Positions 22,899-48,550 are shown, counted from the first letter of the stretch. The stretch is 64,000 nt of DNA from Candidatus Woesearchaeota archaeon (GCA_020637495.1 JACJVV010000001.1:366232-430231); one strand, 5' to 3'. Translations and numbers: made by a program. The notes: generated by a model from the sequence alone, not told the origin.

Positions 22899-23170
22899 GA
22901 GCGGAATATGTCGGGTAGGTAGCCTCTACCTCTGTTGCAAGCAGGCTTCATGGCAAGACTAGCGCCTGGTTTCGGCTTTAGGCCCTATGAAGGGTCTTTG
23001 CCTGGACGTTGAGAATCTGTCCTTCTGGACCGGATTGCATGGGAATCATGTCAGGGCAGGAATGCAGCAGCATTAACCTTGCAAACTGGTGTCTTAAGGG
23101 TTGCGGATTTGAGGAAAGGTGAAGGTAGCTTTTCATTGAGTTTACTGTCAATGCCAGGGTGTCCGCTCAC
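22899..23170 (+). ncRNA. ffs: Signal recognition particle RNA (7S/SRP RNA)
   Basis: A GC-rich island in AT-rich DNA. The 5' GAGCGGA pairs with the 3' UCCGCUC as a terminal helix. Helix-8 motif CAGGGCAGGAAUGCAGCAGCAUUAACC (GGAA tetraloop / AGCAGC asymmetric loop). 5' hairpins GGUAGGUAGCCUCUACC, and a T-run follows the 3' end. Confidence 0.7.
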
Positions 23171-31023: not shown

Positions 31024-31713
31024 ATGACAAAAAAGGATGATGTAGTCATAAAACTTGAAGATGTGTGGAAGATCTATAAGATAGGGGATAATGAGATAAA
31101 TGCATTAGCAGGGGTTGATATTGAGATACCGCGCGGAAAATTTGTAGTTATAATGGGTCCTTCTGGAAGCGGAAAAAGTACTTGCGTAAACATGGTTGGT
31201 TGTCTGGATATACCAACTAAAGGTGAAATATATTTGAATGGTGATAATATAGCTCATCTTGGCGAGAGTGAGCTTGCGCAAATAAGAGGGAAAACCATAG
31301 GTTTCATCTTCCAGCAATTCAATCTGATTCCTACCTTGACAGCATTACAGAATGTCATGCTGCCAATGGCATTCCAGGATATGGATGTAGGGGAAAGAGA
31401 AGAAAGGGCAAAAGAGCTCCTTACTATGGTTGAACTTGGTGATAGGATGAATAATAGGCCTACTGAACTTTCAGGAGGGCAGCAACAACGTGTTGCAATA
31501 GCAAGGGCTTTGGCCAATGATCCTGATGTAATACTTGCAGATGAGCCTACAGGCAATCTTGATTCTAGAACTGGAATAATAGTCATGGAGTATCTGCAAA
31601 AACTCCATAATCAAGGAAAGACAATAATAATGGTGACCCATGACCCAAAGATGACAAAGTTCGCTGAAAGGGTAGTCTTGCTCAAGGATGGAAAAACAGT
31701 GAAAAAGTTATAA
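31024..31713 (+). CDS. ABC transporter ATP-binding protein, MacB/LolD-type
   Basis: Walker [11 protein letters not shown]-loop, signature [15 protein letters not shown], Walker [12 protein letters not shown], and an H-loop. Confidence 0.85.
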
Positions 31714-31749
31714 ATGAATGTAGTTTAAAAGATTACTAGGTGTAAAAAG

Positions 31750-33048
31750 GTGATTGCGATGAAAAAAGGAAGTCAAATAATGATGATTTTATCAGTTCTT
31801 ACAATATTATTATGTACTATTATGGCAGTCTCTGCTGCTTCAACAAATGTGATAGCAGATAAGGACATCAGGCTTACATTGGTCAATCAAGAGCCTGATC
31901 CTGTAGAACCTGGAGAATATGTAAAAGTAAAGTTCAAAGTAGAGAACTGGGGAAGTGAACCTACTGCACCTATAGTTGTTGGCCTCAAGCCAAGTTTTCC
32001 ATTTGAAGTAGTTGATGGTGATTATGAGCAGACAATACCTGGACTTGAGAGAAGACAGAAGGCTGACGATAGTGAAATAGTCGAATGGAGGCTTCTCATA
32101 GATAAGAATGCTGCAGAAGGTGCGAACAACTTGACTGTATATTATAGAGAACTCTCAGGGCAAAGAGTAAATATCATATCTGAAGAAGAGTTTGATATTG
32201 AAGTTAGGACCAGTGATACTATCCTGGAAGTTGTTGATATAATGACTGTTCCTGAAGATGTTGAGCCTGGACAAACTTCTAAATTAATATTAAAAGTAAA
32301 AAATCTTGCTGATAGTTTCATTAAGGATGTTAAGATTAGTCTTGATTTAGAAGATGTTAATATTGCAACTATTGGTTCAACAAGTGAAAAAATAATTCAA
32401 AAATTAGACGGTGGTGAAACTGTTAATGTTGAGTTTGATATTATGCCATCTTCATCTGTAGCTTTAGGAACTGTGAAAATTCCACTTAATATGGAGTTCA
32501 AAGATAATTTGAATAATAAATATACTCAAAATTCAACATTTGGTCTAGTTTTGAATAGTCCGGTAAGTTATATTTTGAATGTTGAAAGCAGTGAAATACT
32601 ATCTCTTAATCAAAAAGGAGATGTTACAGTACAAATTTCAAATAATGGAATTAATAATATTCAATTTCTTACCGTAGAGCTTAAACAAAGTAAAGATTAC
32701 AAAATTTTGTCATCACCTAAAATTTATATTGGTCAAGTTGATAGTGATGATTTTGAAAGTATAACATATACATTATATTCCAATGATACTGATGATTTTG
32801 GAAACATGAATCTTCGACTTTTGTTGACATACACTGATGATTATAACAAGGAGTATAATGTTGAAGAAGAAGTACCTATTAAAATATTCACTGCAAAAGA
32901 AATTAAAGATTATGGTCTAGTTCCATCAGGTAATGGTGGTATGTGGCTGTTAATAATAATAGTAGTTGCAGGTGTTTTTGGTTTCTTGTATTACAGAAAG
33001 AGAAAGAAGAAAAAGCAACAACAGCAACAAAAACAAAATAAGAAATAA
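31750..33048 (+). CDS. Secreted beta-rich cell-surface protein with a C-terminal TM anchor and K/Q-rich tail
   Basis: Signal peptide, repeated ~100-aa beta-strand-like segments, a C-terminal hydrophobic helix, then a KRKKKKQQQQQKQNKK tail; embedded in the ABC/FtsX operon. Confidence 0.5.
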   Translation: MIAMKKGSQIMMILSVLTILLCTIMAVSAASTNVIADKDIRLTLVNQEPDPVEPGEYVKVKFKVENWGSEPTAPIVVGLKPSFPFEVVDGDYEQTIPGLERRQKADDSEIVEWRLLIDKNAAEGANNLTVYYRELSGQRVNIISEEEFDIEVRTSDTILEVVDIMTVPEDVEPGQTSKLILKVKNLADSFIKDVKISLDLEDVNIATIGSTSEKIIQKLDGGETVNVEFDIMPSSSVALGTVKIPLNMEFKDNLNNKYTQNSTFGLVLNSPVSYILNVESSEILSLNQKGDVTVQISNNGINNIQFLTVELKQSKDYKILSSPKIYIGQVDSDDFESITYTLYSNDTDDFGNMNLRLLLTYTDDYNKEYNVEEEVPIKIFTAKEIKDYGLVPSGNGGMWLLIIIVVAGVFGFLYYRKRKKKKQQQQQKQNKK

Positions 33049-33058
33049 GGTCTGAAAG

Positions 33059-34276
33059 ATGATCATAGACCTTTTTTTATATTCTTTTAGAAATCTCAAA
33101 AATAGAAGATTGAGAACTTGGTTAACTATGATTGGAATAGTTATCGGTATTGCAAGTGTAATAGCACTTGTAGGTTTAGGAGGAGGATTAAAGGCGGCAA
33201 TAACTGGTCAGTTTACTGGTGTTAGTGCTGATATTCTAACTATACAAGCAGGTGGTGTTGCTTTTTCAGGTCCACCTGGTTCAGGTGTTGTAAATCCTCT
33301 TAAAAAAGATTATGTTGATGATATTGAAAAAATCTCTTATGTTGATTTTGCTGCTGGTCGTCTTATTGAGGCTGTTAAGATGGATTATAATAACATCCAA
33401 GATATAGCTGTAACTGCCACTATTCCAGGTGGGAAAGTTCGTACAGAATTTGAAAAAATATTTGATCTTAAACTTGAGCAAGGACGGTTGTTAAAAGATG
33501 AAGATACTTCTAAAGTCTTATTAGGACATAATTTCTTAAAAAAAGATAATGGCTTTGATAAAGAAATAGTTGCTGGTTCAAAAATTGAGCTTAATGGTAA
33601 GGGATATGAAGTTGTTGGTATTCTTAAAGCAAAAGGGAGTTTTATGTTTGATAGTGTAATTTTCTTTAATGATCAACCATTACGTGATATTGTAAATAAT
33701 AAAGATAATGTTGATTTAATTGTAGCACGTGTGAAAAACATTAATGATATTGATAAAGCTAAAGAAGCGATTGAAAAATATCTTAGAAATAAAAGAGATG
33801 TTAAAGAAGGTGAGGAAGATTTTAGGGTTCAATCTGCTCAATCAACTATTGACACAATTAATGGGGTTTTGGGCGGTGTTCAGGCTTTTGTAATCATTAT
33901 TGCTGCAATTAGTATGATTGTTGGAGCTATAGGAATAATAAATACTATGTTTACTGCTGTACTTGAAAGAAGAAAAGAAATTGGTATTATGAAATCAATA
34001 GGAGCTAAAAATGAAGATATCTTTTTATTATTTTTAATTGAGTCAGGTCTTCTTGGTTTTGTTGGCGGATTAATTGGAGTAATAATTGGATGGTTATTAG
34101 CAATCTTAGGAACAAATGCATTAAGTGCTGCATTAGGACTTGAAGCTTCACCAGATATCAGTTTTGCTTTTGCATTATTTGCATTACTTGCTTCATTCTT
34201 TATTGGAGCTGCTTCAGGTGTAATACCTGCAATGCAAGCAGCATCGATGAAACCAGTAGATGCTTTGCGGGGTTAA
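33059..34276 (+). CDS. ABC transporter permease, FtsX/MacB-like (1)
   Basis: N-terminal TM, a ~230-aa extracytoplasmic domain, and a C-terminal FtsX 3-TM bundle. Confidence 0.8.
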   Translation: MIIDLFLYSFRNLKNRRLRTWLTMIGIVIGIASVIALVGLGGGLKAAITGQFTGVSADILTIQAGGVAFSGPPGSGVVNPLKKDYVDDIEKISYVDFAAGRLIEAVKMDYNNIQDIAVTATIPGGKVRTEFEKIFDLKLEQGRLLKDEDTSKVLLGHNFLKKDNGFDKEIVAGSKIELNGKGYEVVGILKAKGSFMFDSVIFFNDQPLRDIVNNKDNVDLIVARVKNINDIDKAKEAIEKYLRNKRDVKEGEEDFRVQSAQSTIDTINGVLGGVQAFVIIIAAISMIVGAIGIINTMFTAVLERRKEIGIMKSIGAKNEDIFLLFLIESGLLGFVGGLIGVIIGWLLAILGTNALSAALGLEASPDISFAFALFALLASFFIGAASGVIPAMQAASMKPVDALRG

Positions 34277-34331
34277 AATCAATTTTAGGTTAATAATTAA
34301 TAAACTGAAAATATAAAACAAATTTACAAAA

Positions 34332-35555
34332 ATGATAACAAAAGAAAATTTTAATTATGCATTGAGGAACCTTTTCAATCGAAAGGTAAGGAGTTCTCTG
34401 ACAATATTATCTATTTTTGTAGGTATAGCTACAATATTTATATTTTTAAGTTTTGGCTTTGGATTACAAAATTACATTACTCAATTATCTACAGAAATAG
34501 GTGTTGATAAACTTTTTGTTCAAGCTAAAGGAATTGGTGCTCCAGGAACAGATCCTAATTTTAAGTTGACTGATGATGATTTGAGTGTGATTGAAAAAAC
34601 AAGAGGAATCACACAAGCTATAGGGATGCCTTATGGGAGTGGACAAGTAAAAAAAGATAAAAAAATTGTATATCAATACATGATTGGTATGCCAGTAAAT
34701 TCAAATAAAGATATTACTTTTGCTCTTGAATTTTTCACAGTAAAATTGCTTGAAGGTAGGAATCTCCAAAATGGTGACAATAATAAAATTGTCTTAGGAT
34801 ATAGTTATAGACTACCAAATAAAATCTTTGAAAAAGCATTGAAGATAGGAGATAAATTAGAAATCAATGGAGAAGAATTAAAAATTGTTGGTTTTTTTGA
34901 GGAACTTGGTAATCCTAGTGATGATGCGAATATTTATATGACTATAGATACATTTGATAGGTTAACTAATGCTACTGAGACAAATTATGCATTTTTAGTT
35001 GGTAGAGTCAATGACCCGGCAGATATGTCTGCAATCAAAGATAGAGTGGAACGAGAATTACGTAAATCTCGAGGTTTAGATGAAGGTAAGGAAGATTTTT
35101 TTGTCGCTTCCTTTGATGAATATATTGAATCTTTTTCAGGAGCTACAAATATTGTAAATGGTTTTATTTTGCTGATTGCACTTATTTCAGTTTTTGTCAG
35201 TATGATTAACACTGCAAACACAATGTTTACTTCAATTCTTGAACGAACAAAAGAAATCGGTGTATTGAAAGCAATAGGGGCAAAAAATTCTGAAATATTA
35301 ATTATTTTTTTATTAGAATCTAGTATATTAGGAATGGTTGCAGGAATTATAGGGGTATTAATTGGTTATCTAATTAGTTCTGCTGGAGGGAATATTCTGA
35401 AAGCATTAGGTTGGGGTTTTTTGCAACCTGCTTTTCCAAGTTCCTTATTCATTGGTTGTATACTGTTTGCAACATTAGTCGGCACAATTTCTGGGATGAT
35501 TCCGGCATACAATGCTTCAAAACAGAAACCTGTCGATTCACTGCGATATGAGTGA
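34332..35555 (+). CDS. ABC transporter permease, FtsX/MacB-like (2)
   Basis: Same architecture as the preceding permease; shares the ...SILERTKEIGVLKAIGAKNSEI... segment with it. Confidence 0.8.
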   Translation: MITKENFNYALRNLFNRKVRSSLTILSIFVGIATIFIFLSFGFGLQNYITQLSTEIGVDKLFVQAKGIGAPGTDPNFKLTDDDLSVIEKTRGITQAIGMPYGSGQVKKDKKIVYQYMIGMPVNSNKDITFALEFFTVKLLEGRNLQNGDNNKIVLGYSYRLPNKIFEKALKIGDKLEINGEELKIVGFFEELGNPSDDANIYMTIDTFDRLTNATETNYAFLVGRVNDPADMSAIKDRVERELRKSRGLDEGKEDFFVASFDEYIESFSGATNIVNGFILLIALISVFVSMINTANTMFTSILERTKEIGVLKAIGAKNSEILIIFLLESSILGMVAGIIGVLIGYLISSAGGNILKALGWGFLQPAFPSSLFIGCILFATLVGTISGMIPAYNASKQKPVDSLRYE

Positions 35556-35761
35556 AGTGAATTAGAATTGAATAACTTTGTTCTATCATTAGATATATTG
35601 GTTTGGGTTATCTTTTTATGATTAATAATTTATTCTAAATGTTACTTCTGTTAGGTAGTTATTATTAGAAAACTTTATAAACTTGCAAAAATTTCTACCT
35701 TCAAATGTTGTTATTAAGTAGTAATTACATATTATTCATGCTTATGAGGGGGAAATAAAAA

Positions 35762-38700
35762 ATGAGATTCATCAATCTGATATTATTCTTTTTTGTGATA
35801 GCACTTGCTGGTTCAGCATTTGCATATGACTCAGGATGGAATCAGCTTGCACCTCAGAATGGCGGTGCATGTGGCTGTGCTTATCCTTCATGCGAAGAAA
35901 GCGACTATGGTCTTACATGGTTGCAAGAAGGCTCATGCGTAACAAGTGCGAGTTATGATTTCTTATGCCAAGGCAATAGATGTAATATCCTAAAAAGCAT
36001 AGGTGCAGGCAGGACATATGATATTCCCTCAACAGGCAATTACTATCTTTCTGTCGACGCTATATGGAGCAGTGAATATGAGCGATTATATGGTGGTGTA
36101 AACACATGGGGTTCAGATTCAATAAGAAGATCATCTTATGATTTCAACAGTGCAGTACAATGTGTATGGAGAAATCCTTTCTATGTAAATTCAGATCCTG
36201 CACAAGTATGGTTTGAAGGCGCATCAAATTCAGGTAGCGTCCATGTAGGATATTTCAGGCTTTCAACAGAGATCCCTGATGATGTATATGTGTTCTGTGA
36301 CGATGGATCACAGGTTCCACATGTTTATGAATGTAATGATGGTATTGATAATGATGGAGATGGTTATGTAGATTACCCATATGATCTTGGATGTTCAAGT
36401 TCTGTTGATAACGATGAGGGTGATGGCCATGTAGCATGCTACTCGGACAGCAACTGTGGAAATACTCAGATAAGCACAAGCTGTAATATTGCTGGCGATC
36501 ATGTAACTACTATAACTAATTATGATTGTATAAATCCAGGAACAGAGCATAGCTATTGCACAAGTTCGCAGCAGACTTCAACAGATGATTGTGACTACAT
36601 CTGCTCTAACAGCCTTGGTTGTGATTATACAGAATGTTCCGATAAGATTGATAATGATGTTGATTCTACCATAGATTTCCCTAATGATGCAGGATGCAGT
36701 GATTATTATGATGATGACGAGAGTGACGGACCAGTAACTTGCTATAGCAATAGTGATTGCGATTATCTAGATGATATTGACTCATATTGTACTGGTTCCC
36801 TATATAAGACTGAGACTCTTGATGGTGTATGCAACTATGCAGGAACTGATGCAAGCTATTGCTCACAGAAAGTTAAGAATGTGGTAGTTGACCAGTGCAG
36901 CTACATCTGCAGTGATAGTCTTGGATGTGATTATACAGAATGTTCTGATAGGACCGATAATGACAATGATGGGACAATAGATTATCCAATTGATCTTGGA
37001 TGCAGTGATTACTATGATGATGACGAGAGTGATGGCTATGTCGCTTGCTATAATAATGCAGATTGTGGAGCAATTACTAATGACTATTCATGCAATTATG
37101 CTGGAGACTATGTGCAGACTACAACTGTTCCAAACTGCTTCAATGCAGGTACAGAACAGAGCTATTGCATTGATATAATTGACACAACAACAGATGATTG
37201 TGCAAACATCTGCTCTAATTCATATGGATGCGACTATACAGAGTGCAGTGATGGCATTGATAATGATAATGATAATTTTGTAGACTTCCCTGATGATCTA
37301 GGTTGCAGTAATTACTATGACGATGACGAAAGCAATGGTCCAGTGGAATGCTATTCAAATGGGGATTGTGTAGTGAACAATGTAGTCAATACCTATTGTG
37401 ATGGTGATGATTTTGTGACTGAAGTTCCTAAGGGAGTATGTGATAATCCTGGAACAGAACAAAGCCAATGCATCATAGAGTATAATGTGGATGTTGAGAA
37501 GTGCAATAACATCTGCTCTAATTCACTTGGATGCGACTATACAGAATGTTCAGACGGAATCGATAATGATAATGATAATTTTGTTGACTATCCAATTGAT
37601 TCAGCCTGTAATAATTATTATGACGATGATGAATCTGGTGATATTAAATTAGTTGAGACAAAATGGGACATAGATATATTGAGTAGTAGTGATACATATC
37701 AGACAGATAGGGGATGCCATGATATCTCTGTTAAGGTAGAGGCATATGATAGTTTTGACGATGTTGAGATTACTGTGAGGATACCAGGTACACCATATGG
37801 TCTAGTTAATACCTCTGACTTATTTGATATCGTGAATGGTCAGATTGTGACAAAGAGTATGCTACTATGCCTTCCTGATGATATGGAAACAGATTATTAT
37901 ACTCTAGTAGTTCAAGGAGATGACTCTGATGGGTCATTGTTCATACAGAATTATCCAATCAAACTTGAAGGATTACCAGTGGAATGCTATACACATTCAG
38001 ACTGTGGTCTTAATGGATTTACAGAATATTGTTCAGTCCAAGGGAATCATGTGACTGAGAGTACAATGTTCTATTGCCATAATGCAGGAACTGAATTAAG
38101 CTTCTGTACAAATGAGACAAATTCAAACGTTGATGAATGCGATTATATATGCAGCAATAATCTTGGCTGTGATTATACAGAGTGTAGTGATGGGATCGAC
38201 AATGATAATGATAATCTTGTCGATTATCCTAATGATCTAGGGTGTGATAATTATTACGATGATGATGAGAGCAATGATCCTATTGAATGCTATTCAAATG
38301 ATGATTGTCCTCAGACAAGCCAGCCAGCACCATATTGCGATGGCAATGATTATGTGGTCGTTGAAGTAGACAGTGTATGTGTAAATCCAGGAACAGCCCA
38401 GAGTTCATGCGAAGCAATATCAAATGAGATGATCCAGGAATGCAACTACATCTGCAGCAATAACCTTGGTTGTGACTATACAGAATGCAGTGATGGACAA
38501 GATAATGACGGCGATGGACTGGTTGATTATCCTAATGATCCTGGTTGTTTAAGTTACTCTGATACAGATGAATATAATATAATTACAGTGGTACATGAAT
38601 GCAGTGATGGAATAGATAATGACGGAGATGGTTCAGCTGATTATCCATATGATTTCAGCTGCTCAAGCCCTACTGACGATGATGAGACATATCCAAGACC

Positions 38701-40579
38701 TGAATGCTATGATGGCATTGATAATGATGGCGATGGGTATGTAGATCTTGTAGATGCAGGATGTGATAGTACTCAAGATAATGATGAGAGGAATGTAATA
38801 TGCTTTAGCAATTCAGATTGCGGTTCATCTAACGATGATTCATATTGCAATATCAATGGAGACTATGTTGTTGACACAACAACTCCTACATGCTTCAATG
38901 CAGGAACCTACTATAGTTATTGTGCTGATATTGTCTATGACAACGTAGAGGAATGTACAGGCTCATGCACAAATGCAAACGGTTGTGAGTACACAGAATG
39001 CAGCGATGGCATCGATAATGATAATGATGGCAGCATTGATTATCCTAATGATCTAGGTTGCACTTCCCCTGAAGATGACAACGAGGCTGACGGATATGTG
39101 ATGTGCAACTCCAATTCAGACTGTGGAAGCATGAATATTGGTACTAGTTGCGTCGATGGTGATTTCCTTACAACAACAACGATTCCAACATGCCTCAATC
39201 CAGGAACAGAACAGAGCTCATGCTATATAAATATGAGTGATGAATGGGACTATTGCAGCAATTCATGCAGCGATGATCTAGGATGCGATTCTACTGAATG
39301 TTCAGACGGCATCGACAATGACAATGATGGTTATGCAGATTATCCTAACGATCTAGGATGCAGCAATTACTATGACAATGATGAGAGTGACGGGAACGTT
39401 GAATGCAACACTGATCTAGATTGCGGAAGCATTTCTGTCGGATACAGCTGCGATTACAATTCATTTACAACAACAACTACTACACCTGTATGCATTGATG
39501 CAGGGACAGAACACAGTTCTTGTACAGAGACTGTTGATGTAGATGCTGTAGGATGCAATAATGTATGCTCTGCTGAATATGGCTGTGATTACACAGAATG
39601 CAGCGATGGCATCGATAATGATAATGATGGCTTGATCGATTTTGGAGACGACCCTGGTTGTGATAGTTATAGTGATAATGATGAATATAACGCACCTGTC
39701 ATAAGCTGCTATTCTGATTCAGACTGTGGCTACCTTGATGGAACAAACACACATTGCGAAGAACTTGATTTTGTGATTGAGACAAATGTAGGCATATGTG
39801 TTGATGCAGGGACTTCAGATAGCTATTGCACAGGTGAATATTATAGCACTGAAACAATAGCTTGTACATTGACATGCAATGATGCATACGGATGCATGAA
39901 TGCAGAATGCAGCGACGGTATCGACAATGATGGTGATGGAAACATAGATCTCAGCGATGCAGGTTGCGACAACGAGTTTGACGATGATGAGAGTGATGAA
40001 CCGGTTTATGTACCACAATGTTCAGACGGTATCGATAATGATGGTGATACATTGGTTGACATGGACGATCCAGGTTGCAGTTCTCCTGATGATGACTTTG
40101 AAGGAGATGGAACAAGCGCTTGTGATGATGGCATAGACAACGACAACGACGGCTTAATTGATAGTAATGATCCTGGATGCCTAAGTCCTCAGGACAATGA
40201 TGAGTATAATGCAGCAATCTATAGTGATGCAGGGGATGATGAAGACCTCATAATTGAGAACATGGTACTTATCGATGGCGGTAAAGTTACAGGTATTGAA
40301 TCAGCAGTTGTAGAAGCAGGAGATGAAGTGACAGTTGGAGTAACTTTCAGAAATAGGGGAGATAACAGGCTTGATGATGTCAGGTTACAGGTATCCATCC
40401 CTGAGCTAGGGATTTCCAGAAGGATACATAAGTATGACCTTTCAGTTGGTGAAAGGGAGCTGGCTCACGTTGATTTATTGATCCCAGATTGGGTCCAACC
40501 AGGTGAGTATCTAGTGAGGGTGCTTGTCTATGATGAAGAGGCAAAACGTCTTCAGCATAGGTATTTAACCATACAGTAA
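35762..40579 (+). CDS. Giant secreted Cys/Asp-rich repeat protein (1605 aa) with ~15 MopE-like putative metal-binding modules and a C-terminal CARDB-like domain
   Basis: Signal peptide. An ~95-aa module (...CSNSLGCDYTECSDGIDNDNDGxIDYPNDLGCSxYYDDDESDGxVxCYSNSDCG...C..AGTExSxC...) recurs ~15 times; the C...DGxDNDxDGxxD core recurs also in shorter tandem copies near the C-terminus. One ~110-aa non-repeat insert, and a C-terminal beta domain (RLDDVRLQVSIPELGISRR...PGEYLVRVLVYDEE). Confidence 0.7.
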   Translation: MRFINLILFFFVIALAGSAFAYDSGWNQLAPQNGGACGCAYPSCEESDYGLTWLQEGSCVTSASYDFLCQGNRCNILKSIGAGRTYDIPSTGNYYLSVDAIWSSEYERLYGGVNTWGSDSIRRSSYDFNSAVQCVWRNPFYVNSDPAQVWFEGASNSGSVHVGYFRLSTEIPDDVYVFCDDGSQVPHVYECNDGIDNDGDGYVDYPYDLGCSSSVDNDEGDGHVACYSDSNCGNTQISTSCNIAGDHVTTITNYDCINPGTEHSYCTSSQQTSTDDCDYICSNSLGCDYTECSDKIDNDVDSTIDFPNDAGCSDYYDDDESDGPVTCYSNSDCDYLDDIDSYCTGSLYKTETLDGVCNYAGTDASYCSQKVKNVVVDQCSYICSDSLGCDYTECSDRTDNDNDGTIDYPIDLGCSDYYDDDESDGYVACYNNADCGAITNDYSCNYAGDYVQTTTVPNCFNAGTEQSYCIDIIDTTTDDCANICSNSYGCDYTECSDGIDNDNDNFVDFPDDLGCSNYYDDDESNGPVECYSNGDCVVNNVVNTYCDGDDFVTEVPKGVCDNPGTEQSQCIIEYNVDVEKCNNICSNSLGCDYTECSDGIDNDNDNFVDYPIDSACNNYYDDDESGDIKLVETKWDIDILSSSDTYQTDRGCHDISVKVEAYDSFDDVEITVRIPGTPYGLVNTSDLFDIVNGQIVTKSMLLCLPDDMETDYYTLVVQGDDSDGSLFIQNYPIKLEGLPVECYTHSDCGLNGFTEYCSVQGNHVTESTMFYCHNAGTELSFCTNETNSNVDECDYICSNNLGCDYTECSDGIDNDNDNLVDYPNDLGCDNYYDDDESNDPIECYSNDDCPQTSQPAPYCDGNDYVVVEVDSVCVNPGTAQSSCEAISNEMIQECNYICSNNLGCDYTECSDGQDNDGDGLVDYPNDPGCLSYSDTDEYNIITVVHECSDGIDNDGDGSADYPYDFSCSSPTDDDETYPRPECYDGIDNDGDGYVDLVDAGCDSTQDNDERNVICFSNSDCGSSNDDSYCNINGDYVVDTTTPTCFNAGTYYSYCADIVYDNVEECTGSCTNANGCEYTECSDGIDNDNDGSIDYPNDLGCTSPEDDNEADGYVMCNSNSDCGSMNIGTSCVDGDFLTTTTIPTCLNPGTEQSSCYINMSDEWDYCSNSCSDDLGCDSTECSDGIDNDNDGYADYPNDLGCSNYYDNDESDGNVECNTDLDCGSISVGYSCDYNSFTTTTTTPVCIDAGTEHSSCTETVDVDAVGCNNVCSAEYGCDYTECSDGIDNDNDGLIDFGDDPGCDSYSDNDEYNAPVISCYSDSDCGYLDGTNTHCEELDFVIETNVGICVDAGTSDSYCTGEYYSTETIACTLTCNDAYGCMNAECSDGIDNDGDGNIDLSDAGCDNEFDDDESDEPVYVPQCSDGIDNDGDTLVDMDDPGCSSPDDDFEGDGTSACDDGIDNDNDGLIDSNDPGCLSPQDNDEYNAAIYSDAGDDEDLIIENMVLIDGGKVTGIESAVVEAGDEVTVGVTFRNRGDNRLDDVRLQVSIPELGISRRIHKYDLSVGERELAHVDLLIPDWVQPGEYLVRVLVYDEEAKRLQHRYLTIQ

Positions 40580-40735
40580 TAGCAAAATTCCATTTTTTAT
40601 TTACTTTAAAATGGTAACAAAAGCGAAATATTTAAATAGTAGGGAGGTATTCTCTACCTAAAACGGCAGCAATGCTGTCCACGAGAATACTCGAAAATAA
40701 ATAACAATCAAAACACTAAATTGGGGGTTACGCAA

Positions 40736-42037
40736 ATGAAGGGTTTTAAAACAATAGCAATCGTCGCTTTGATGCTTTGTGCATTCCTGGCTTCAGCTCT
40801 TGCAGTTGATCTAGGCAGCGTACTTGACGTTACAACAAAGATCGATGGCGATATTGTAAGTCCAAACGAAGATGTTAGAAAGGACTTTGAAAGAGGAGAA
40901 ATAGTTGACCTGAAAGTCAATGTGATTTCTGAAATAGAATTGGAAGATGTCGAGATTACAGCAATAATCTCAGGTTATGAATTCAACAACATCGAGCCAA
41001 TGTCAGATACATCAAGCATTTTTGACATGGAACCAAATGTCTCATACAGTAAGAGACTTAATGTAAGAATTCCAGTTGAAGTTGAAGAAGACAACTACAA
41101 GTTGAGAATCTTGGTTTCAAACAGATATGGTCAATCAGTGATATATGATTATAATCTAAAGCTAGATTCACCAAGACACGGATTCCAGATTGAGGATGTA
41201 GTATTCTCACCAGGAACAGTTGTTGAAGCTGGAAGAGCTTTGTTGACAACAGTACGTGTTGAGAACAAGGGTGAGAGGGATGAAGACAGCGTTAAGGTGT
41301 CAGTAGCAATCCCAGAACTAGGCGTAAGCGCTTCAGATTTCATCGATGAGATCGAATTTGAAGATTCTGAAACAAGTGAAGAGATGTACATGAGAATTCC
41401 AGTATGTGCACAGCCAGGCGATTATCAGGCAGTTATCGAAGTAAGATACAATGAACTAAGAGAAGCTGTTTATGAGAATGCTATCATCACAGTTGTAGAA
41501 AGTGATGCATGCGGTGCTGCAATGGGACAGAATGAAGCTCAGACAACAATCGCTCTGGGTGCAACATCACAGAACTTGGTTCCTGGAGAAGCAGGAGCAT
41601 TGTATCCATTGACAATAACAAATAATGGTAATGGTGCAGTTGCTTACAGCGTTTCAGTTGAAGGAACAAACGATTTCGCATCAGTTCAGATCAACCCAGT
41701 CAGTACATTCGTACTTAATGGTGGAGACAGCCAGGCTGTTTTCGTTTACCTAACACCTGCTGAAGATGCAGCTGAAGGTCAGCATGTATTCACAGTAAGC
41801 GTGAACTCAGGTAATGAAGTACTTAAGCAGATCCCTTTGACTGCAGTAGTTGAAGAAGGAGACGGCAAATCAAGTTCAAGTGGAAGCGTAAACCTCAGAG
41901 ATGCACTTGAAGTTGGACTTATTGTGCTTGTTGTCCTTTTGATCATCCTAGCAGTTGTTGTAGGAATCAAGAAGCTTAAGGAAGAACAGGAAGACAATGA
42001 TGACGAAGATGACGTAGAGGGTAAAACCTACTACTAA
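40736..42037 (+). CDS. CARDB-like repeat cell-surface protein with a C-terminal TM anchor and acidic tail
   Basis: Signal peptide, three beta-domains carrying ...SVKVSVAIPELGVSA...PGDYQAVIEVRYN-type segments like the giant protein's C-terminus, then a TM helix and a DDEDD tail. The ORF track begins at a TTG at 40721; ATG 40736 is preceded by GGGGGT. Confidence 0.55.
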   Translation: MKGFKTIAIVALMLCAFLASALAVDLGSVLDVTTKIDGDIVSPNEDVRKDFERGEIVDLKVNVISEIELEDVEITAIISGYEFNNIEPMSDTSSIFDMEPNVSYSKRLNVRIPVEVEEDNYKLRILVSNRYGQSVIYDYNLKLDSPRHGFQIEDVVFSPGTVVEAGRALLTTVRVENKGERDEDSVKVSVAIPELGVSASDFIDEIEFEDSETSEEMYMRIPVCAQPGDYQAVIEVRYNELREAVYENAIITVVESDACGAAMGQNEAQTTIALGATSQNLVPGEAGALYPLTITNNGNGAVAYSVSVEGTNDFASVQINPVSTFVLNGGDSQAVFVYLTPAEDAAEGQHVFTVSVNSGNEVLKQIPLTAVVEEGDGKSSSSGSVNLRDALEVGLIVLVVLLIILAVVVGIKKLKEEQEDNDDEDDVEGKTYY

Positions 42038-42079: not shown

Positions 42080-42457
42080 GTGAATCTGATGTCAAGAACA
42101 CAATCTAACGATATCCTTAGTTTCTTTGTGAGGCAAATGACTTCTGAGTCTGCATTTAATAAGGTGTCTTTGAAAGGTATAATAAATGCATATTCTTCAA
42201 GAGTTGTTCCAACCCTAGGAATCGAGACAGTTACATCAATACGTGTTCAAGCTGATCCTAGCTGTAATCCAGGTTCCTGTTCCAATTATTTTGTGTATCT
42301 CAGTGGTTTATTGAAAAAAGATTTCAGCACTCTTGATCTGCCAGTAGGGGATAGCATATCATCTTATGGGATATTGCGAGAGGATAATGTTTTTATCCCT
42401 ACAGAGCTTGCAAATTCAACGACTTGCATTGTATACGGGATAAAACCCTATAATTGA
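42080..42457 (+). CDS. Hypothetical protein (125 aa)
   Basis: ORF only. Confidence 0.3.
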   Translation: MNLMSRTQSNDILSFFVRQMTSESAFNKVSLKGIINAYSSRVVPTLGIETVTSIRVQADPSCNPGSCSNYFVYLSGLLKKDFSTLDLPVGDSISSYGILREDNVFIPTELANSTTCIVYGIKPYN

Positions 42458-48199: not shown

Positions 48200-48550
48200 T
48201 CACTGTATTATGATTGGCCTGTGCTTAATATGTCTTTCTCCATCGTCGCCATAAGCATAGATCCTTACCCAGTATTCTCCTGGTTCAAGATCATGGTAAC
48301 CATAAGCAACCTTTGCTGCAGTATCTCCAGCCCTCACATTGTTCTGAGAAGATGTTCCTGCATAGCCATAGTCATCAAGGACTAAGAATTTGACTCTCAT
48401 GTTATCAACAGCATTCTCATTCCCTCTGTTGTCTATGTTTGCATGCAATATTATTGGACTTTCTTGATATAGGTTATCATCAATGAACCTGATGCTACCA
48501 AACATTGCGAACACGATTAATACGCTAAGTAGTATTGTATAACTCTTCAT
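48200..48550 (-). CDS. Small secreted protein with a CARDB-like beta domain
   Basis: Signal peptide (MKSYTILLSVLIVFAMFGS) and an ...LEPGEYWVRIYAYGDDGE segment resembling the CARDB domains of the surface locus. Confidence 0.4.
   Translation of the reverse strand: MKSYTILLSVLIVFAMFGSIRFIDDNLYQESPIILHANIDNRGNENAVDNMRVKFLVLDDYGYAGTSSQNNVRAGDTAAKVAYGYHDLEPGEYWVRIYAYGDDGERHIKHRPIIIQ

Follow-up and report, generated by a model that had tools for sequence, protein, structure and literature searches.

Woesearchaeota and other DPANN archaea are uncultured, and their mode of host contact is an open question. A 64,000-nucleotide (nt) stretch of DNA from a Candidatus Woesearchaeota archaeon (the window; all positions are counted from its first letter) raises this question in concrete form. 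One of its genes encodes a giant protein of 1605 amino acids (aa) with a putative signal peptide and no membrane anchor of its own. What is this protein, how is it held on the cell and what might it do there? The protein is identical to the NCBI 'hypothetical protein' H6503_02030 of Candidatus Woesearchaeota archaeon, encoded on a 712-kb contig, so that the DPANN origin suggested in a preliminary description of the sequence holds; an Archaea_SRP RNA at 22899-23168 marks the window as archaeal. The reading favoured here, at a probability of roughly 0.55, is that the giant protein is the hypervariable, anchorless first member of a three-gene envelope cassette of Woesearchaeota and Nanoarchaeia, a surface stalk stiffened by Ca2+ and disulfides and docked on an anchor. 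The cassette is best read as, in order, a variable protein with a constant C-terminal domain (CTD), a transmembrane (TM) protein of about 430 aa with three beta domains (the partner) and a large glycosylated polytopic membrane protein.

A conserved cassette with one hypervariable slot

The three genes lie in the same orientation.

35762..40579, + strand: giant gene, ATG-to-stop open reading frame (ORF) of 1605 aa, uninterrupted over 4818 nt
40736..42037, + strand: partner gene, 433 aa, with the ATG start of the NCBI record; TTG at 40721 would give 438 aa
42543..45731, + strand: 1062-aa polytopic, sequon-rich membrane protein with 27 N-x-S/T sequons

The TTG start at 40721, proposed by an ORF lister, is probably wrong for the partner. 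For comparison, the giant protein has three N-x-S/T sequons and the partner one.

The partner served as anchor for a survey of species-representative genomes, 279 of which encode a relative of it. Eighty loci were fetched, essentially all from Woesearchaeota, Nanoarchaeia or Nanobdellota, and 70 of these included enough upstream sequence. At 53 of the 70 loci the directly upstream ORF on the same strand carries the CTD, which ends no more than six residues from the stop codon. The CTD lies 7-61 residues from the stop at four more loci and in the second upstream ORF at two, giving a total of 59. Pairing of the giant protein with a TM-anchored neighbour, claimed earlier from the window alone, is thus conserved in most related genomes, L001, L002 and L004 among them. 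Complete CTD-bearing upstream ORFs extend from 162 to 2456 aa (median 1042), with a median gap to the partner gene of 143 nt. Their payloads are diverse. Only 16 of the 57 directly adjacent CTD ORFs contain the acidic repeat described below as A, and seven contain the eight-cysteine domain C8. Sampled payloads include 14-fold He_PIG/Big_9 arrays with CBM60, PKD/cadherin mixtures with sub-threshold TSP_3/MopE motifs, and unannotated Cys-rich sequence. Some 25 large proteins that otherwise differ carry the CTD at their very C-terminus, with the signature ...PGxYxxR...(K/R)R(V/I)(K/Q)(H/Y)R a few residues before the stop.

The closest loci illustrate the same turnover. In L001 and L004 the gene order is an ABC ATPase, a CARDB protein, two MacB/FtsX permeases, one extra gene and the giant C8-A protein, then the partner, a membrane protein of about 1000 aa and TRM on the opposite strand; the more distant L002 keeps the giant protein, partner and membrane protein. 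Flanking genes are 66-82% identical to those of L001 and L004, the giant gene about 40% (repeat on repeat). Module count varies among relatives, with C8 copy numbers of 10, 10, about 13-14 and 4 in four loci. Nor are the N-terminal parts related: the window has an orphan domain there, other loci Big_9, cadherin or PKD.

Homology links the constant end of the giant protein to its neighbour. Scanned alone, the CTD matches NPCBM_assoc/NEW3 at 27.1 bits (cut-off 24.4); in a full-length scan the score is 20.4 bits, below the cut-off, and CARDB itself has no Pfam match on the giant protein. The CTD aligns with the second beta domain of the partner at 35% identity (BLASTP E 2e-9), and HHalign relates the two families with 98.5% probability (E 2.5e-15). 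The C-terminal CARDB-like beta domain of the preliminary description is borne out by this match and this homology, and the alignments make the CTD and partner domain 2 paralogues. A further beta domain, inserted within the repeat array, resembles partner domain 1 (BLASTP, 31% identity over 113 aa, E 3e-9) and also matches the partners of L001, L002 and L004.

The partner begins with a signal peptide and three beta domains, which a Ser-rich linker joins to a TM helix; its acidic tail ends GKTYY. Its third beta domain (aa 296-367) scores 26.1 bits on CARDB, above the cut-off of 22.7, which together with the C-terminal TM helix agrees with the earlier account of a downstream gene with three beta domains and a TM anchor. 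The 301 homologs of the partner hardly differ in length, and the nearest are 75-77% identical to it; the PDB has no sequence relative of the partner. Across species, including L001, L002 and L004, the TM helix and extreme C-terminus are near-invariant (...LEVGLIVLVVLLIILA...EGKTYY-stop), and 22 sequences all keep Y432 and Y433. Such conservation suggests a cytoplasmic or membrane interaction motif. The 1062-aa membrane protein is probably the third cassette gene, since its homologs lie directly downstream of the partner (4-300 nt 3' of it) in 29 of 52 loci. Conservation is concentrated in two parts of this protein, an ectodomain at the N-terminus (aa ~10-240) and an Ig-like region further on (aa ~910-1030), and does not extend to the stretch rich in lysine and glutamate between them.

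A single stand-alone domain of the CTD type is also encoded in the window. The ORF at 48200..48550 (- strand, 116 aa) has a signal peptide or TM segment followed by this one beta domain and ends ...GEYWVRIYAYGDDGERHIKHRPIIIQ; phmmer relates it to the CTD of the giant protein with E 9.7e-5. Genes of 119-120 aa occupy the equivalent position, after TRM on the minus strand, in L001 and L004, so the CTD-type domain family probably has a small, conserved, secreted member in the 116-aa ORF.

Architecture of the giant protein and its acidic repeat

The giant protein contains 120 Cys (7.5%) and 259 Asp (16.1%). By inspection, its N-terminus (MRFINLILFFFVIALAGSAFA/YD) resembles a Sec signal peptide. 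ORF, composition and N-terminus agree with the preliminary description of a giant, secreted, Cys/Asp-rich, modular protein. The recurrent Asp motif noted there is equally clear: the protein has 15 copies of C-x-D-x-x-D-N-D-x-D, where 2000 shuffled versions of it have 0.0075 on average. Copies are spaced at 98-103 aa in ten cases and at 34-38 aa in the rest, and one interval of 212 aa spans the inserted beta domain. Two units underlie this spacing. The short acidic repeat A (about 30-36 aa, two Cys, 15 copies) has the consensus T-E-C-S-D-G-I-D-N-D-N-D-G-x-x-D-Y-P-x-D-x-G-C-x-x-Y-x-D-D-D-E; columns C3, D5, D8, N9, D10, D12, D16, D20, C23, D28 and E31 are constant in all 15. The C8 segment (about 65-70 aa) has eight invariant Cys in the pattern C-Y-S-N-S-D-C-G ... 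C ... C-x-N-(A/P)-G-T-x-x-S-x-C ... C-x-x-x-C ... G-C, and lies 5' of A in ten of the 15 cases. What had been described as about 15 modules of some 95 aa with about 12 Cys thus resolves into ten C8+A modules of 98-103 aa with ten Cys each, plus five stand-alone A repeats (A1, A8, A9, A14 and A15). Every unit has an even Cys count (8 + 15x2 + 10x8 + 2 = 120). The domains, all on the + strand, are as follows.

35762..35824, + strand: signal peptide, aa 1-21 (MRFINLILFFFVIALAGSAFA), by sequence inspection: basic residue, hydrophobic core, then A-F-A
35825..36331, + strand: orphan N-terminal domain, aa 22-190, 169 aa, 8 Cys; searches gave no relative and no family match
36329..36418, + strand: A1, acidic 2-Cys repeat, stand-alone after the N-terminal domain (motif spacing, alignment, NF033662)
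36425..36634, + strand: C8-1, 8-Cys domain (hidden Markov model (HMM) envelope, alignment)
36632..36721, + strand: A2 (motif, alignment)
36728..36940, + strand: C8-2 (HMM envelope, alignment)
36938..37027, + strand: A3 (motif, alignment), within the AlphaFold model
37034..37243, + strand: C8-3, the modelled copy (AlphaFold)
37241..37330, + strand: A4 (motif, alignment), within the AlphaFold model
37337..37546, + strand: C8-4 (HMM envelope, alignment)
37544..37633, + strand: A5 (motif, alignment)
37640..37972, + strand: inserted beta domain, aa 627-737, 2 Cys, homologous to partner domain 1 (BLASTP)
37973..38182, + strand: C8-5 (HMM envelope, alignment)
38180..38269, + strand: A6 (motif, alignment)
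38276..38485, + strand: C8-6 (HMM envelope, alignment)
38483..38791, + strand: A7, A8 and A9, consecutive, aa 908-1010, spaced 35-38 aa (motif, alignment)
38789..38998, + strand: C8-7 (HMM envelope, alignment)
38996..39085, + strand: A10 (motif, alignment)
39092..39298, + strand: C8-8 (HMM envelope, alignment)
39296..39385, + strand: A11 (motif, alignment)
39392..39598, + strand: C8-9 (HMM envelope, alignment)
39596..39685, + strand: A12 (motif, alignment)
39692..39907, + strand: C8-10 (HMM envelope, alignment)
39905..40207, + strand: A13, A14 and A15, consecutive, aa 1382-1482; A14 and A15 in exact register with the teneurin core
40229..40576, + strand: CTD, C-terminal beta-sandwich domain, aa 1490-1605, no Cys, ending ...KRLQHRYLTIQ-stop (NPCBM_assoc match, partner homology)

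The N-terminal domain has no homolog among the 229 fetched relatives and no Pfam match at E <= 10. A search of 5.8 billion proteins returned nothing, although that search is limited by its word index and distant relatives may exist. Its single-sequence AlphaFold model is uninformative (predicted local distance difference test (pLDDT) 33.9).

The repeat array had been regarded as near-identical blocks of extreme regularity, arising by recent intragenic expansion. Near-identity applies to a motif of about 17 residues; as whole modules, the long units share on average 49% of residues (maximum 63%) and 57% of nucleotides (range 51-67%), and identical residues use the same codon in only 55% of cases. 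A repeat finder reports copies 60-85% identical to each reference, and Tandem Repeats Finder (TRF) detects no long-period tandem array in the giant gene. Recent expansion was rejected because DNA identity between modules is too low. By the same measures, low amino acid and nucleotide identity, low codon sharing and no TRF array, the repeat array is old and maintained by selection on its Cys and Asp positions.

Contrary to the suggestion that this architecture belongs to no described family, the short repeat is a member of NCBIfam NF033662, 'acidic double-disulfide repeat-containing protein', which is present in thousands of proteins. The giant protein matches this model in 13 stretches (139.1 bits, E 2.5e-41; cut-off 41), and the relatives P0002 and P0015 also reach the cut-off. 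A profile of C8+A retrieves 5719 representative proteins out of 1.84 billion (E <= 0.001), nearly all of them by virtue of A. The best 120 matches of a full-length search all carry 4-30 copies of A and come from Woesearchaeota/Nanoarchaeia, CPR (Candidate Phyla Radiation) bacteria (Peribacteria, Peregrinibacteria, Falkowbacteria) and Myxococcota. Woesearchaeota, CPR bacteria and Myxococcota have the repeat in tandem within large secreted proteins. The matches span profile positions of about 5-30 of 32. The model name implies four Cys (two disulfides), whereas window A repeats have two per 30-aa unit, as do 79% of 2500 A-repeat instances (exactly two), and ten of the 15 are fused behind C8, which the model does not cover.

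The resemblance of the repeat to MopE, thrombospondin type 3 and dockerin holds at the level of the motif, which is like a Ca-binding loop, and fails at the Pfam thresholds of all three families. For the full giant protein, Pfam lists none of the three at E <= 0.1. On the A7-A9 segment Cu-binding_MopE (PF11617; cut-off 27 bits) reaches only 8.6 bits (E 2.9). TSP_3 (PF02412, cut-off 25 bits) gives no match at E <= 10 on A-only or C8-A segments, dockerin none at E <= 10 on isolated segments, and thrombospondin chains are absent from PDB profile matches with E <= 1. EF-hand_6 scores 8.4 bits on A-only segments (cut-off 25), and EF-hand PDB chains align over the DxDxDG core only, 8-15 residues. 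What A shares with TSP_3 and EF-hand sequences is Asp-rich D-x-D-x-D-G-x-x-D loops stabilised by a disulfide. With Cu-binding_MopE it shares the core C-x-D-G-x-D-N-(D/N)-x-D-G-x-x-D (PMC3278476, Table 1); the internal Cys of MopE is N or G in window A, and true MopE-type motifs with the extra Cys are present in some relatives.

A closer structural counterpart is the C-rich domain of teneurin-4 (7PLP, 49 residues), the best PDB match of A in single-sequence and profile searches alike. A profile of the 15 window A repeats aligns its positions 1-23 to 7PLP residues 11-32 (E 0.01). With a profile of 119 diverse A repeats the match reaches E 6.5e-4 (22.8 bits), which is modest on account of the short motif; the top six matches of this profile also include teneurin-m (8FIA) and two teneurin-2 chains (6VHH, 6CMX), aligned over the same segment. 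The teneurin-4 domain binds three Ca2+ through E835, D840, D843, N844, D845, D847, D851, D854 and D856; of its three sites, I and II resemble those of thrombospondin type 3, and III resembles that of LDLR-A (PMC9058538). Columns D5, D8, N9, D10, D12, D16 and D20 of A align with teneurin D840, D843, N844, D845, D847, D851 and D854, and C3 and C23 with C838 and C857. The common core is C-x-D-x-x-D-N-D-x-D-G-x-x-D-x-x-D-P-x-C, with its first and last Cys and seven ligands. The 23-residue teneurin core has been aligned with a diatom endo-1,3-beta-glucosidase (CNDGIDNDNDGLFDCEDPDC), Volvox gametolysin (CDDGIDNDCDGLVDMDDPDC) and the Pfam MopE consensus (PMC3278476, Table 1). A15 (CDDGIDNDNDGLIDSNDPGC) and A14 (CSDGIDNDGDTLVDMDDPGC) plainly match the same teneurin/glucanase/gametolysin motif, and the teneurin-type core ExxCx(D/N)xxDx(D/E)xDxxxD...(D/E)C, with acidic ligands (consensus from PMC3278476), is present in the A repeats. 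Teneurin has the domain in single copy, with six Cys (paired 1-3, 2-5, 4-6) and a conotoxin-like tail. The A repeat lacks this pattern; it is tandem, keeps two Cys (the first and third of teneurin) and has a conserved acidic DDDE tail (D28, E31). A putative copper role is unsupported, the solved relative of the motif being a Ca2+ binder. Judged on these alignments, A is a teneurin-type calcium motif, not a copper/MopE motif, and would bind Ca2+; its annotation shifts accordingly. A prokaryotic A repeat, instead of a diatom gene, may have been the source of the teneurin C-rich domain.

C8 has no Pfam or NCBIfam model (isolated segments; Pfam at E <= 10). The nearest family, Myxo_Cys_RPT, scores 18 bits, below its cut-off. 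An AlphaFold model of A-C8-A reaches pLDDT 90.6 and shows C8 as a short helix and a three-stranded beta-sheet, with no PDB fold match; the A repeats are without regular secondary structure, as expected for Ca-wire repeats. C8 is thus a confident predicted fold missing from Pfam, NCBIfam and the PDB. It is rare (19 of 229 fetched proteins) and, in proteins with A repeats, is always followed directly by A. C8 arrays also occur without A (P0131, P0184), which makes C8 an independent domain. P0184 (1380 aa) alternates 13 C8-like units with a shorter four-Cys version, C-x-x-D-x-D-C-x-D-x-N-x-x-T-x-D-x-C-x-N-P-G-T-x-x-S-x-C, has no A repeats and ends in a true MopE-type motif (CEDELDNDCDGIVNEDC). 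Its unit pattern suggests that C8 is part of a broader, uncatalogued family of NPGT-containing Cys repeats.

Possible readings: surface stalk, S-layer, sorting signal or metal sink

The favoured stalk can be set out point by point. (i) The giant protein would be exported by the Sec pathway. (ii) Sixty potential disulfides would form along it; as the Cys count is even in every domain, all Cys may be disulfide-bonded. (iii) About 30-45 Ca2+, two to three per A repeat, would stiffen the extended stalk, given that the teneurin-4 Ca2+ ligands are kept in each A repeat. (iv) The stalk itself would consist of ten C8 domains interleaved with 15 A repeats. (v) The CTD would dock non-covalently on the partner, beta-sandwich to beta-sandwich, and so tether the stalk to the membrane. 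It is probably by this match of the CTD to its membrane-anchored neighbour that the giant protein is held on the cell. (vi) The far end of the stalk would display the orphan N-terminal domain, available to bind a host cell or substrate. The adhesin-type payloads at other loci (Big_9, He_PIG, PKD, cadherin-like, CBM60) and the extreme turnover of the slot fit a role in host or substrate contact, and adhesion is a putative function of the giant protein. Several observations weigh against this scheme. No CTD gene lies next to the partner at 11 of the 70 loci, and common descent by itself could account for the homology between the CTD and partner domain 2. The 7PLP match rests on a 23-residue motif at 22.8 bits, and the window A repeats lack the other four Cys of teneurin and D856. 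Extracellular disulfides are assumed for an archaeon that is probably anaerobic. The N-terminal 'head' has no recognisable fold, which makes its binding role a guess.

The cassette can also be viewed as a two-component surface layer (S-layer), the variable CTD protein forming an outer lattice or canopy and the partner its membrane-anchored stalk. In SlaA/SlaB of Sulfolobales, the gene of a large variable secreted protein is likewise followed by that of a beta-sandwich protein of about 45 kDa with a C-terminal TM helix. In favour of the analogy are the order of the genes, the sizes, the topology of anchoring and the near-universal adjacency. The partner also aligns with positions 367-623 of the 627 in NF033506, PACE-CTERM-PROT 'putative S-layer protein', and one of its homologs (P0332) bears the label 'putative S-layer protein' from its source. 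S-layer genes, not necessarily those of the cassette, are among the top-expressed in Woesearchaeota (PMC11606122). The NF033506 score is 78.4 bits, however, under the cut-off of 110, no sequence similarity to SlaA/SlaB was detected, no coiled coil was noted in the partner, and the partner has no PDB sequence relative. Lattice subunits normally keep one architecture per lineage, whereas the upstream protein here is far more variable in size (162-2456 aa) and unrelated in domain content, and only three N-glycosylation sequons in the giant protein would be unusual for an archaeal S-layer protein. An S-layer is accordingly judged unlikely. Slightly less likely again is that the CTD is a sorting or secretion signal, recognised and perhaps cleaved, with the downstream genes as machinery, by analogy with the C-terminal domains of the type IX secretion system. 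Its position within six residues of the stop at 53 of 70 loci, its conserved basic motif (K/R)R(V/I)(K/Q)(H/Y)R, its attachment to unrelated payloads and the co-conserved large polytopic membrane protein would all suit such a signal. Yet a Sec-type signal peptide is already present (by inspection), domain searches of the cassette gave no protease and nothing sortase-like, the CTD also occurs by itself as a secreted protein (48200..48550), and paralogy with a structural partner domain fits assembly better than recognition by an enzyme.

Two further explanations concern the repeats. A MopE-like copper-binding or metal-scavenging protein, or a cation sink with acidic repeats for acquisition or storage, would accord with the alignment of the core motif to the Cu-binding_MopE consensus (PMC3278476, Table 1), with the true C-x-D-x-x-D-N-D-C-D-G motif that ends the relative P0184, and with an Asp content of 16%. 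It is nevertheless improbable. The PF11617 score is far below its threshold, with the full protein unlisted, the sole solved structure of the motif binds Ca2+, not Cu (PMC9058538), and His (0.9%) and Trp (0.6%) are scarce. Non-acidic Ig-repeat proteins fill the same genomic slot in other species, so that metal capture cannot be the conserved function. Least probable of all is an assembly artefact or pseudogene with a mis-assembled or collapsed array. Such repeat genes do cause assembly or frame problems, as seen from L005, where the gene is broken at a contig end, and from L004 and L006, where it is split into two ORFs. The window ORF, though, is uninterrupted for 4818 nt, an even Cys count is kept in all domains and independent assemblies show the same architecture. 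Assembly collapse, which the preliminary description had named as grounds for refutation, is unlikely because the repeats, only 51-67% identical at the DNA level, are too diverged.

The cassette joins known parts to apparently new ones. Giant secreted proteins with PKD, DUF11 or cadherin-like repeats have been proposed for host attachment in CPR/DPANN episymbionts, for example Vampirococcus (PMC8080830), and many CPR relatives of the giant protein combine A repeats with DUF11. Such giant repetitive surface proteins are known, as is the acidic repeat (NF033662; teneurin-type). The giant surface proteins have been described case by case, and no description of the CTD/partner/membrane-protein cassette, of C8 or of the C8-A stalk was found in open-access literature text. 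Apparently new, above all, is the cassette, which marks one hypervariable surface slot across Woesearchaeota; the C8 domain and the C8-A composite stalk also appear to be new. The value of the locus lies more in the conserved cassette than in 'MopE-like' modules. The CTD with its conserved anchor marks the slot of the most variable surface protein (53-59 of 70 loci), which provides a rule for finding candidate attachment proteins in Woesearchaeota metagenome-assembled genomes (MAGs), and CTD and partner form a concrete pair for binding and structural tests. More tentative, at rather less than even odds, is the proposal that CTD, partner and polytopic membrane protein constitute a previously undescribed surface-display system, exchanging its payload on a constant anchor, and the main determinant of episymbiont attachment. 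If so, the display slot would chiefly determine what Woesearchaeota/Nanoarchaeia episymbionts stick to, with the partner carried by 279 species-level genomes. Its rapidly changing payload would be Ig arrays, carbohydrate-binding modules or, in the window, a Cys-rich stalk that binds Ca2+.

Neighbouring genes and minor observations

Directly upstream of the giant gene, 31024..35555 (+ strand) encodes an ABC ATPase, a 432-aa CARDB protein with a C-terminal TM segment and two MacB/FtsX-type permeases. These genes are 53-82% identical and syntenic in L001 and L004. A functional link to the cassette was rejected, as the genes are linked to it in only three of 45 loci, the closest relatives, and they appear to be a separate conserved module. 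The small ORF between partner and membrane protein was likewise discarded as a cassette member.

42080..42457, + strand: ORF125, 125 aa, GTG start, no counterpart

The preliminary description had listed ORF125 among the genes that follow the partner. Neither tblastn nor phmmer gives it a counterpart at any of 83 related loci, syntenic ones included, and it has no family match. It is probably not a real gene, or strain-specific.

Both intergenic regions, 35556..35761 and 40580..40735, contain a TATA-like A/T-rich box (TTTATAAA; ATATTTAAATA), and a Shine-Dalgarno-like G-rich run lies shortly 5' of each start codon (GAGGGGG and GGGGG, respectively). The giant gene and the partner may therefore have separate promoters. 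A sigma-70 promoter scan of the DNA, irrelevant to an archaeon, stayed at shuffle level.

Giant genes are interrupted at three related loci. In L004 (10001..16342) the gene is split into ORFs of 1302 and 766 aa, the second starting mid-C8. In L006 (4338..10267) it forms overlapping ORFs of 1863 and 200 aa, and in L005 (the source of P0131) it is cut by the contig end. These cases are either real frameshifts or phase variation, or assembly errors in repeat genes. Some source labels are also at odds with the loci. L006, L008-L010 and others are labelled 'uncultured Methanosarcinales archaeon', though both syntenic with Woesearchaeota loci and homologous to them, and P0061/P0325 are labelled 'candidate division KSB1 bacterium', yet carry the archaeal cassette on adjacent locus tags. 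The Methanosarcinales labels are probably placeholder or mislabelled taxonomy of automated MAG submissions, and the KSB1 case is probably similar.

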